Source: Phycisphaerae bacterium (GTDB lineage Bacteria; Planctomycetota; Phycisphaerae; UBA1845; Fen-1342). From it: a stretch of 64,000 nucleotides of DNA. Below are positions 28,714-35,554 of the stretch, one piece after another (positions within the stretch are counted from its first letter, which is position 1; each line of letters starts with the position of its first letter). The stretch spans positions 32,001 through 96,000 of the forward strand of contig JASFQK010000009.1 of NCBI GenBank assembly GCA_050115495.1. Reading direction: 5' to 3'. The notes beneath the pieces were generated by a model. It made no database searches. It worked only from the letters and a program-made list of their open reading frames with translations, and was not told the DNA's origin. The position numbers and the translations under genes were made by a program.

Positions 28714-29892
28714 ATGAAATACACCCGCCGACTTATTCAGCTTGCGTTTCTTACGCTCACCGTGGTCGCCGTCTTTGTCGTACGCGGCAACGCCGAGCGG
28801 TGGTGCCCGTTCGGAGGCGTCGAGGCGATCTACCAGTACACGCAGGAAGGAAACCTGCTGTGCTCGCTGGGCGTGTCGAACTTCTACGTGCTGGCGGCGG
28901 TGCTGCTGAGCACGCTGCTGCTGCGGCGGGCGTTCTGCTCGTACATCTGCCCGCTGGGCACGGTGTCGGAGTGGCTCGGAGCGGGTGCCCGAAAGCTCGG
29001 CCTGCCCCAATGGCGGGTGCCGCATGCGCTGGACCGCGTGCTCGCCCTGCTGAAATACGTCGTGCTGGTCGCGATCCTGTACTTCACGTGGCGCGTGGGC
29101 GAATTGGTCTTCCGCGGGTACGACCCGTGCTACGCCCTGCTCAGCCGGCACGGTGAGGACATCACGATCTGGGCGTACGTCATCTGCGGCGTACTCGTCG
29201 TGGCGTCCCTGCTGGTGATGCTGCCGCTGTGCCGATGGCTGTGCCCGCTGGCGGCGGTGCTGAACCCGTTCTCCTGGCTGGGCCTGACCCGCATTCGCCG
29301 CGGCGACGAAGCGTGCATCGAGTGCGGCGCGTGCGCGGCTGCGTGCCCGATGGGCATTCGCGTCGATCGCGTGCGCGAGGTGACGGCCGCTCGCTGCACC
29401 GGGTGCTTCGAATGCACCGAGGCGTGCCCGACGCGCGGCGACGGGGCGCTCGTCTGGGGACCGCCGAAGAAGCTCGGCCGATCGTGGCCGCGCGGTGCGC
29501 TGGTCGCCGTGTTGCTGGCGTGTATCGGCGGAGCGGTCGTGCTGGCGTACGCGCTGCCATTGCCCTCGTTCGTGCACACGCGAGGCACGCCGCCGGCGGA
29601 GATCGCGAGCGTCGAGTTGGGCGTGCACGATCTGACGTGCCGGGGGCGGGCGAACCTGTTCGTCTACTACGTCGAACGGGATGACTACCTGGCCGTGCCG
29701 GGGTACCTGCGCATCGAGGCGTGGCCGGGGCCGGGAGCGGCACGCTGCGTCATTTCGTACGACCCGGCGGAGACGGACGAGAGCCAGATCAAGGCGGCGA
29801 TTACGGAGCCGTATTTCGATGCGCTGGGCGGTTCGTGGCGGCCGTCGCCGTTTCGGATCGAGGGGTATGATCCGTTGTTTGGAGAGGAGTAG
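28714..29892 (+). CDS. Membrane 4Fe-4S-binding protein (NapH/MauN/YccM-like) with C-terminal HMA-like domain
   Basis: WCPFGG, FCSYICPLG, CRWLCPL and CIECGACAAACP...CTGCFECTEACP; C-terminal VHDLTCRGR. Confidence 0.85.
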   Translation: MKYTRRLIQLAFLTLTVVAVFVVRGNAERWCPFGGVEAIYQYTQEGNLLCSLGVSNFYVLAAVLLSTLLLRRAFCSYICPLGTVSEWLGAGARKLGLPQWRVPHALDRVLALLKYVVLVAILYFTWRVGELVFRGYDPCYALLSRHGEDITIWAYVICGVLVVASLLVMLPLCRWLCPLAAVLNPFSWLGLTRIRRGDEACIECGACAAACPMGIRVDRVREVTAARCTGCFECTEACPTRGDGALVWGPPKKLGRSWPRGALVAVLLACIGGAVVLAYALPLPSFVHTRGTPPAEIASVELGVHDLTCRGRANLFVYYVERDDYLAVPGYLRIEAWPGPGAARCVISYDPAETDESQIKAAITEPYFDALGGSWRPSPFRIEGYDPLFGEE

Positions 29893-29964
29893 AGGAGGGA
29901 GTCAGGGGTCAGAAGTTGCGGGCGGGGGGTGGTTGGGGGGAAGCCTTGAGCCTTGAGCCGGACG

Positions 29965-30051
29965 GTGTGGCATGCTGAAGCCTTAGGCGCCGGCATGTCT
30001 TTCCCTCGCGTCAGGAAGAACATGCCGGCGCTGCGCTTCGGCATGCCACAC
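29965..30051. repeat. Long imperfect palindrome (REP/MITE-like)
   Basis: gtgtggcatgctgaagc...gcgccggcatgt...acatgccggcgc...gcttcggcatgccacac. Confidence 0.65.
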
Positions 30052-30102
30052 TCGGGCACTGGTGGGCGAGTCAGCGGTGACACCGACGCGGAGCGCCGTC
30101 TG

Positions 30103-30185
30103 TCCGAGCCGCGACCGGTGGGCAGTGGTCTGCGCAGACGGTGCGTTGCTGGCGACGACCCGCTCGCTACCGCTCGGGGCTCGGA
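30103..30185. repeat. REP-like inverted repeat pair (GAGCCGCGACCG-type)
   Basis: tccgagccgcgaccggtgggcagtgg ... ccgctcgctaccgctcggggctcgga. Confidence 0.55.
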
Positions 30186-30249
30186 TAGGCGTTGACACGC
30201 CGCGCCCGGCGCTACGGGTGGTGGGAGAAACCGGTTGTGGACGGGGGAT

Positions 30250-30298
30250 AAAAAAGCCGGCGGAGGGTTCCGCGTGAATAACGGAACGGCCTCCGCCG
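30250..30298 (-). terminator. Intrinsic terminator of a minus-strand transcript
   Basis: Minus strand reads CGGCGGAGG-CC-GTTCCG-loop-CGGAAC-CCTCCGCCG-GC-TTTTTT. Confidence 0.75.
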
Positions 30299-30633
30299 AG
30301 CGGCAATACGTGCATCACTCTTCGTTAGGAAGGGGAGCCAGTGACGCACGAAAAAGCGGAAGGACCAGCGTGAAGCCGACCCTCCCAAAAAGCATTGCTT
30401 ATGCTCATCGTTGAAGCAGACGCGGCGAGAAACGACTGGTACCGCAGTCACCGACCTTTCGGCTCCCACTGAAAGGTGGAACTCGTACCGCTGCTGCCTA
30501 CCCTTCCGTTCGTTTGGCTCCCTTACTCTCCGCCGGAAGGGCGAGGGCTGTACTTACCTTCCCACGTGTTGGCTCCCATGTTGTGGAAGGTGTGCTTCTT
30601 GAACTACCTCCGCATCTGCCCCTCTCGAAAGAG
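30250..30633 (-). ncRNA. Candidate structured non-coding RNA with three GGGAGCC-loop hairpins
   Basis: Three sister hairpins, a long-range closing helix, G-U pairs that work only on the minus strand, and a terminator; no credible ORF. The 5' end is approximate. Confidence 0.6.
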
Positions 30634-30957
30634 CAACAGCGAAAAATGTTAGGCACGCTGGGCGGCGGATTTCCACTTCTGCCCCATAAAAAGTGGAGAA
30701 TAGAGCGCAAGCTCTTGATATTGCGATGGTTACAGTGCGAGATTCTCGGCAGAGTGCAATGGGACGGCCGCCGACGGCCATTGGCGACCGGCGGGCGTGG
30801 AAACCCGGCGGCGGCGCGGGCCCGCGGTCGCCAAGCGTCGGCGATTCAGCTATATTGTGTGGCTCGTCAACAAGTTACGTCGGCAGACCCCTGCGGAGCG
30901 CGTGCGCCGAGCCGCCGGGGCCCGGCGGCAGCACGGCAGGAACAGGAGCGGGCGCTC

Positions 30958-31521
30958 ATGGCCAAAGCGAGCGAACTGAAAAAGGGCAAGGTCATCCAGT
31001 ATCAGGACGGCCTCTACTCGATCTTCGACATTACGCGGGTCTCGAAGGGCAACTGGCGCAGCTACCTCCAGGCCAAGCTCAAGTCGCTGACGACCGGGCA
31101 GATCCTCGACGTCCGCTTCTCGGTCGACGACAAGGTCGAGACCCCCTTCGTCGACACCAAGCCGTACGAGTACCTCTACCGCGACGGCGAGGACTACGTG
31201 ATCATGGACCAGCAGAACTACGACCAAGTCACGATTCCGGCGGACGTCATGGGCGACGCCCATCTGTACCTGAAGGGCAACGAGCTCGTGACATGTTCGT
31301 TCGTCGACGGGAAAATCGTGAGCGTCGAGCTGCCGAACGTGGTGGAGCTAAGCGTGACCGATACACCGCCGGTGGCCCGCGGGGCCACGGCAACGAACCA
31401 GAGCAAGGATGCCACGCTGGAGACGGGGTTGCGCGTGCGCGTGCCGCCGTTCATCGAGAACGGCGAGCTGATTCGCGTCGACACCCGCACGGGTGAGTAT
31501 CTGGAGAGGGCCAAGGGGTGA
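30958..31521 (+). CDS. efp: Translation elongation factor P
   Basis: [27 protein letters not shown]...[28 protein letters not shown]. Confidence 0.95.
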
Positions 31522-31567
31522 GCAACACCGAACGCTCCGCGGCCCGCCGTGCGGAGGCTATGCCCCG

Positions 31568-35554
<3,987 letters not shown>

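Follow-up and report, generated by a model that had tools for sequence, protein, structure and literature searches.

What is encoded in the gap of ca. 1 kb between a 4Fe-4S protein gene and efp in the genome of a Phycisphaerae bacterium (assembly GCA_050115495.1; 5.97 Mb, 66.7% G+C; labelled G000 here)? We analysed this gap within a stretch of 64,000 nucleotides (nt), positions 32,001 to 96,000 of contig JASFQK010000009.1, which we call the window and whose coordinates are used unless a genome contig is named. A preliminary description, drawn from the letters of the window, had placed there a structured RNA with three GGGAGCC-loop hairpins, a further hairpin with the complementary loop and a terminator, and we located each of these elements at its proposed position on the minus strand. 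The gap hosts a small RNA (sRNA) gene, at 30640-30250 on the minus strand, that is real, expressed, non-coding and previously undescribed; it represents a new lineage-specific sRNA family, made of known kinds of parts in a new arrangement. These parts are the following, in the order of transcription:

30646-30676, minus strand: promoter, with a -35-like GTGGAAA (30676-30670), a spacer of 17-18 nt and an extended -10-like CCTAACAT (30653-30646)
30398-30640, minus strand: 5' domain, a long imperfect closing stem around three hairpins, from RNAalifold and a flank duplex test
about 30640-30592 with about 30437-30398, minus strand: 5' and 3' flanks of the closing stem
30619-30610 with 30425-30416, minus strand: GCAGAUGCGG paired with CCGCGUCUGC, within the closing stem
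30622-30633, minus strand: small CUCU-UUCG-AGAG hairpin (a), not conserved
30556-30591, minus strand: hairpin 1, stem ACCUUCC/GGAAGGU, loop GGGAGCC at 30577-30571
30501-30541, minus strand: hairpin 2, stem CCCUUCCG/CGGAAGGG, loop GGGAGCC at 30522-30516
30454-30477, minus strand: hairpin 3, stem ACCUUUC/GAAAGGU, loop AGU-GGGAGCC (30467-30461)
30351-30386, minus strand: hairpin d, terminator-like, 12-13 bp with four G-U pairs (30386-30358), then GC-UUUUU (U run 30355-30351)
30309-30350, minus strand: hairpin e, stem of 10-11 bp, loop starting GGCUCCCC (30339-30332), the complement of GGGAGCC
30250-30302, minus strand: terminator f, stem GGCGGAGG...CCCUCCGCC, U run 30255-30250

The transcript is predicted to start at about 30640. 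The promoter, in the form GTGGA(A/C)N - N15-20 - C(C/T)TAnnn(A/T/G), precedes 18 of 19 homologues of the window's type (type A, see below) in a regular-expression search, and the 19th by eye. The window contains a second site with the same promoter-like pattern, at about 43641 on the minus strand (G000 C9:75641), as GTGGAAA-N17-CCTATCGT.

Expression is evident from public sequencing data. Part of the stretch is contained in twelve runs, of which six are RNA libraries, and four metatranscriptomes of four studies have contigs on the element with 0-1 differences, which together span 30630-30332:

30345-30630: contig from library X2, depth 151
30382-30615: contig from library X3, depth 15.6
30332-30612: contig from library X4, depth 3.6
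30454-30620: contig from library X7, depth 3.5

These contigs carry no strand information; their starts, at 30630-30612, are compatible with the predicted transcript start. The X2 contig compares with a depth of 5.9 for the neighbouring efp contig, depth being a poor measure. The end of the element (30331-30250), with terminator f, is covered by no RNA contig, which does not show lack of transcription, and the loop of e is reached by one contig only. The X2 and X4 contigs stop just past the U run of d, at 30345 and 30332, which hints, though only weakly, that most transcripts are terminated by d. The contigs in RNA libraries, together with a conserved promoter of its own, terminators and conserved hairpins, bear out the proposal of a structured non-coding RNA on the minus strand.

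Searches for a known or protein-coding element gave negative results. The seven open reading frames (ORFs) of the element had at most fragmentary tblastn matches in 12 homologous loci, none being conserved, and the small ORFs overlapping it had no Pfam match; we thus rejected a protein-coding small ORF, in agreement with the preliminary description. A repetitive extragenic palindromic (REP) sequence, a miniature inverted-repeat transposable element or another dispersed repeat, which would have undermined the proposal, was ruled out as well, because the element has a single match in its own genome. Rfam 15 retrieved only two tRNAs from the whole window at the gathering score, and only five matches at E ≤ 10 from 29900-31000, all far below gathering (the best with 17.2 bits against a cut-off of 40), so that the element matches no known family, as had been supposed; six related loci scanned in the same way contained no relevant family. 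Likewise, we found no such regulatory RNA described in listings and abstracts of the Planctomycetota literature. The minimum free energy (MFE) of the 401-nt stretch, -168.9 kcal/mol, compares with -146.9 +/- 6.3 for shuffled sequences (z -3.49; 1 of 100 shuffles as good), and a terminator scan returned three sites versus 1.0 expected, including hairpin d and the inner part of f.

How well is the element kept in close relatives? BLASTN found matches in five of the six other genomes of the genus, over d and e only, so that covariance models were needed for a wider search. Alignment of the upstream regions showed the whole element to be kept in those five genomes, with the promoter-like GTGGAAA-N17/18-CCTAnnAT, the hairpins, d, e and f. 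Each genus locus has three GGGAGCC hairpins with differing stems: those of hairpin 1 vary between lineages yet remain complementary, and hairpin 3 has at least four distinct stem sequences among six lineages, every one complementary. A metagenome scan with the genus-type e hairpin yielded nine loci, one from the L006 lineage, six from the L004 lineage and two from new lineages (L294 and L296). In all six lineages the 5' flank pairs with the region behind hairpin 3 in a long duplex (dG -39 to -53 kcal/mol, with 0-2 of 200 shuffles as good and z from -2.6 to -5.0), despite sequences that differ between them, and RNAalifold on the first six sequences recovered the closing helices with compensatory changes. 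Since this conserved duplex covers the 5' region, the small UUCG hairpin (a), which had been noted as a separate element and is indeed present in the sequence, is not conserved and probably gives way to the closing stem.

The genes on either side bear on whether the element might act in cis:

28714-29892, plus strand: 4Fe-4S (Fer4) protein gene, convergent with the sRNA gene
about 30934-31521, plus strand: efp, divergent from the sRNA gene, with secA next
31493-35554, plus strand: secA, 1353 amino acids

The SecA product is unusually long, and a large gap separates its DEAD-like and P-loop/wing matches. The RNA might be a leader that acts in cis, attenuate a gene further downstream or be an element tied to efp, as two terminator-like hairpins in series and its divergence from efp in 6/6 genus loci could suggest. 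However, the divergence from efp, correctly noted in the preliminary description, holds for the genus only, with no efp within 1.5 kb in any other genus; besides, no conserved sequence or gene follows f and the next gene, that of the Fer4 protein, is convergent, all of which makes such a role highly improbable.

The wider distribution was explored with three covariance models: R1, of d and e; R2, a second model of d and e from 15 homologues; and R3, of the compact array, found after a pattern search, array-only calls being those with no R2 match at E ≤ 0.001. The d-e module appears in 35 of the 72 genomes of the window's bacterial family (21/40 genera), in one of 118 genomes from other families of the order, this match (L034) lacking the loop motif, and in none of 146 genomes of the class outside the family. 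In the alignment of 15 homologues, which was fitted to the model and so favours structure, d and e are 96% paired and 18 of 22 pairs changed on both sides (9/12 in d and 9/10 in e), a level reached by 0/500 shuffles, and slid controls fall to 31-60% paired. The two stems thus covary strongly in relatives, with the loop motif of e invariant in the 15 aligned homologues. Three R1 matches (L024, L025 and L027, from G087, G068 and G063) were discarded as false positives, being REP-like GGGAGCATCGGCG... repeats; these loci contain REP-like inverted repeats GGGAGCATCGGCGTCTCGCCGGTG..., in tandem copies that match R1 weakly. A loose pattern scan of genome contigs returned at least 121 stretches and, among the 80 taken, only L081 matched R2.

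These searches define a shared 3' module, formed by d, e with its invariant GGCUCCCC loop, and f with a conserved GCCCUCCGCC strand; the (G)CCCUCCGCC 3' strand of f is conserved widely across the family. The module follows different 5' parts. In type A, found in 22 genomes including that of the window, the GTGGAAA promoter and one to four GGGAGCC-loop hairpins precede d-e-f. Type B occurs in ten genomes without type A and in three with both, and has a different 5' part, often downstream of a CUCCUCC-rich sRNA-like gene; type A, the CUCCUCC sRNA and type B lie in tandem in three genomes. A U-rich tract follows d in 19/19 type-A forms examined versus 0/10 type-B forms seen. Pattern search and R3 identified the array in 24 of the 72 family genomes, 12 of them without an R2 match. 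R3 misses the expanded form present in the window and therefore undercounts arrays, which occur in at least 34 of the 72 genomes. Array and anti-loop module are thus separable, each also occurring without the other. The window's own genome contains one e module, in cis with the array, its second match being a plain terminator.

We also observed short genes that look like sRNA genes, share the promoter type of the sRNA, contain CUCCUCCUCC tracts (one or two each) and end in an intrinsic terminator. Two of them lie in tandem outside the window, at about 2570 and 2416 of G000 C19 (minus strand), and others are found at L019, L021, L029, L033, L035, L037 and L040; those of relatives immediately precede type-B RNAs. 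They resemble anti-Shine-Dalgarno sRNAs, and the loci scanned gave no Rfam match.

This variety bears on the idea that the RNA has some other structural role, as a scaffold for a protein or a ribosome-binding RNA, with the loop complementarity serving tertiary folding. The genus form, whose large multi-branch domain is closed by stems that are significant in 6/6 lineages, would suit it. Nevertheless, we consider it quite improbable, given that one to four hairpins and compact forms with no closing stem fit poorly with one fixed tertiary fold and that hairpin e is dispensable in many genomes.

What, then, do the hairpins of the array have in common? Their motif GGGAGCC is rare in the window's own genome, where its 691 sites, counted over both strands, place it 103rd among the 105 permutations of the same composition (median 2552); a triple occurrence together with the complement inside 250 nt is thus far from chance. 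It is also consistently displayed: 34 of the 37 GGGAGCC motifs of 19 type-A RNAs lie in loops of stems of at least 6 bp, versus 27% of 684 other genomic sites. The hairpins that carry it, three in the window and one to four in relatives, have pyrimidine-rich 5' strands and purine-rich 3' strands, and the main hairpin of R3 is 93% paired, with 7/14 pairs changed on both sides. Over the 19 type-A 5' domains, GGA is enriched 2.1-fold (144 versus 68.7). Judged by its sequence, GGGAGCC looks like a Shine-Dalgarno site, because start regions of this lineage often contain (N)GGAGC, as do most ndk start regions in 30 genomes, and GGCUCCCC in turn resembles an anti-Shine-Dalgarno seed; there are many AAGGAGCC-N-ATG start sites in the window's own genome, and the 3' end of the 16S rRNA is of the usual CCUCC type (...GGAUCACCUCCUUUCU). 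Neither GGCUCCC nor GGGAGCC is present in the 16S rRNA.

Some further occurrences of related words were noticed. Four GGGAGCC-loop hairpins of 7-13 bp, with a CCCCGCCCC / GGGGCGGGG core, are located at G000 C9:154539, C13:69779, C53:29142 and C53:23006 (minus strand), in a conserved stretch ca. 180 nt downstream of paralogous genes ending ...NNFDISPFVGLLVEP; they could be further sites for a reader of the GGGAGCC loop. Tandem arrays of up to ca. 14 GGGAGCNA octamers occur in G022 (loci L246, L251, L253-L257 and L259-L261) and at L245 (G068), in intergenic positions and often beside a dispersed repeat starting GTAGGGTGCGTCATCGACGCGGC. Finally, GGCTCCCC and its complement are rarer than the reversed control word in G000 (188 versus 287), G022 (106 versus 262), G016 (41 versus 174) and G023 (98 versus 189), and may be avoided genome-wide in these four family genomes.

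Repeated, loop-displayed and invariant motifs that resemble a Shine-Dalgarno site and vary in copy number point to a decoy or sponge. The overall GGA enrichment and the depth of the X2 contig relative to that of efp, for what depth is worth, would also suit a sponge. Our best explanation, whose chances of being right and wrong we rate equally, is that the gene encodes a stand-alone, trans-acting minus-strand sRNA of a modular, lineage-specific family, a decoy that mimics Shine-Dalgarno sites. Its loops would resemble the ribosome-binding sites of the lineage (GGAG, then C) and the array would titrate a factor recognizing such sites, allowing mRNAs to escape it. Two candidate partners, not mutually exclusive, would be the GGA-binding protein CsrA and the anti-Shine-Dalgarno-like GGCUCCCC loop of d-e-f. 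In the window's own genome this loop would be made only upon transcriptional read-through of hairpin d, giving a short, sponge-only isoform of ca. 290 nt that ends after d and a longer one of ca. 390 nt with both decoys and seed.

Several observations weigh against this explanation or parts of it. The short isoform rests solely on the contig stops at 30345 and 30332, 13 nt apart. A trans-acting e-loop partner is missing in the window's own genome, whose only e loop is in cis. In 11 of the 12 genomes found only by R3, what comes directly behind the array is a plain terminator, rich in G+C, and no e hairpin; the remaining one (G062) has a divergent e, and rechecking G022 and G016 with R2 at E ≤ 1 gave nothing. 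As for the protein partner, csrA lies in a fliW-csrA-flagellin cluster, seven invariant bases exceed the expected need of a GGA reader, and GGA is barely enriched in the window's own RNA (8 versus 6.5 expected). The motif shows no enrichment ahead of start codons (36 of 691 sites, 5.2%, versus 3.3-10.2% for 25 control heptamers), nor is it conserved at the ndk start, the sole start region checked (2/30 genomes); on both grounds we rejected GGGAGCC as a conserved mRNA target site. The ten candidate genes with GGGAGCC are heterogeneous, including those for hydrogenase, NDK, ValRS, glycogen phosphorylase, NuoH and DnaB, among others. Also, the stems of the sister hairpins are similar, so that RNAalifold, given a motif-anchored alignment of the six lineages, chose another register and joined the 3' strand of hairpin 1 to the 5' strand of its neighbour, hairpin 2; showing these cross-hairpin pairings in place of three hairpins, that alignment was not used as support.

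Could the partner be an RNA? The e loop is a perfect 7-nt complement of GGGAGCC, extending to 8 nt where the motif is GGGGAGCC, and this GGGAGCC/GGCUCCC complementarity is kept in 19/19 window-like forms, both motifs being invariant. Their mean unpaired probability is mostly 0.5-0.8 in predicted ensembles, and the global MFE fold directly pairs them in 5 of the 19 homologues. The exact complementarity argues for an interaction of array and e loop in every genome that has both; for the window's own genome this would be an interaction in cis, once transcription has passed d. Of the built-in kissing-loop switch of the preliminary description, the complementarity is thus real, but the switch itself is weakened: with each module also occurring alone, it is not obligatory and cannot be the only role of the array. 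In the fuller version of this idea, which we regard as doubtful, the RNA would be an RNA-RNA device, its GGGAGCC loops kissing the GGCUCCCC loop in cis, with self-quenching as in the proposed switch, or in trans with the paralogous type-B sRNAs, and so tuning how much anti-Shine-Dalgarno seed is left to repress mRNAs. The two invariant motifs being exact complements (chance ca. 1e-4 for a given heptamer), largely unpaired and linked in one transcription unit in 22 genomes would favour it, as would the tandem of type A, CUCCUCC sRNA and type B. On the other side, the modules occur apart, the invariance of the motifs precludes covariation between them, and flanking bases lengthen the pairing in only two or three lineages (L023, L032/L167), possibly by chance; besides, the internal-loop variant GGAAGC would mismatch, and RNA contigs are absent from f and enter the e loop only once.

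Precedents for such a device may be found in RosA of B. subtilis (PMC8216469), a G-rich sponge RNA for sRNAs with C-rich seeds such as RoxS/RsaE, and RsaI of S. aureus (10.1101/278127), which combines both kinds of region in one molecule, as described in excerpts of these two sources. As far as these excerpts go, our RNA is like RosA and RsaI in that accessible G-rich motifs complement C-rich, anti-Shine-Dalgarno-like seed loops, and like RsaI in that G-rich and C-rich regions are combined in one molecule. Unlike them, it belongs to an unrelated phylum with unrelated sequence, a series of sister hairpins displays its decoys, its seed comes after a terminator-like hairpin, and a separate partner sRNA is absent from its own genome (one is present in G012, G019 and G023). 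The d-e-f module in turn resembles RoxS/RsaE-type sRNAs in that a covarying hairpin, whose C-rich loop (GGCUCCCC) is conserved, precedes an intrinsic terminator, but has no Rfam match.

The alternative partner is a protein. CsrA is encoded in the window's own genome (G000 C31:14029-14184, 86 bits) and in 71 of the 72 family genomes, including 11 whose arrays have no e hairpin directly behind, and is hence the obvious universal candidate. Since it is nearly universal with or without the RNA, co-occurrence cannot discriminate this idea. We consider it possible, though only tentatively, that the RNA is a specific CsrA sponge, dimers of the protein binding GGA in the GGGAGCC loops and in the neighbouring GGA-rich purine strands; by analogy with CsrB/RsmZ, it would then be a second, RNA-based antagonist alongside FliW. 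Besides the distribution of CsrA, this would account for the display of GGA in hairpin loops, its enrichment over the type-A 5' domains and a second GG(A/G)AGC motif ca. 10 nt downstream in compact forms. In addition, the csrA start region, AGGAAGGAGCCGCG(G/T/A)-AUG, has AGGAAGGAGCCGCG identical in 21/21 genomes across genera (G000 C31:14185-14200 and 20 relatives, L174-L193) and includes GGAGCCG and AGGAAGGA, like the loop and purine-strand motifs of the RNA; this likeness was noticed post hoc, a given stretch of 20 nt having a probability of ca. 0.35% to contain GGAGCCG by chance and GGAGC being common at start sites. We also observed that GCAUCGGCA is conserved ca. 10 nt upstream of AGGAAGGAGCCGCG; with the identity of AGGAAGGAGCCGCG itself, this makes for an unusually strong constraint on a start region. 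Nevertheless, the RNA has no Rfam homology to CsrB, CsrC, RsmX, RsmY or RsmZ, its motif has seven invariant bases rather than three, with only one to four loop sites, and GGAGC is simply a common ribosome-binding-site context in the lineage; moreover, CsrA is equally present in genomes where no RNA was found, and the fliW-type system of the host would make such a sponge atypical. According to excerpts of a review (PMC7652899), Gammaproteobacteria lack fliW, and the gene is anti-correlated with BarA-UvrY, the activators of Csr sRNAs; the abstract of PMC4894983 describes a FliW-type species as lacking antagonizing sRNAs.

With the gammaproteobacterial CsrB, CsrC, RsmX, RsmY and RsmZ the RNA shares the format of a stand-alone, abundant sRNA with repeated hairpins, variable in number, exposing a GGA-containing motif in a CsrA-encoding genome. 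It differs from them in sequence and structure, as judged by Rfam, in its fixed heptamer and few sites, in a host with FliW and in having a complementary anti-motif hairpin behind a terminator in the same unit. The nearest published analogues are RosA/RsaI for an RNA partner and CsrB/RsmZ for a protein partner.

Both partners might be joined in a more elaborate scheme, which we consider unlikely: a two-isoform riboregulator in which the leaky terminator d would split the decoy array from its own seed hairpin, termination yielding a pure sponge and read-through a self-quenched regulator. The sponge would, moreover, be the first RNA to antagonize CsrA in a FliW-type lineage outside the Proteobacteria (Planctomycetota).

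Whatever its partner, the RNA described here defines an sRNA family that is expressed and well delimited, is supported by covariation and has a defined promoter and motifs that can be tested. Nature provides its members in a series, with the array by itself, the array joined to the seed module, and the seed module by itself, in which the contribution of each part can be examined. If CsrA is the partner, the family could overturn the idea that sRNA sponges are absent from FliW-type systems; if it is the complementary loop, sponge and seed would share one transcription unit. Should the two-isoform scheme be true, both halves of a post-transcriptional control of start sites would be wired into one gene.
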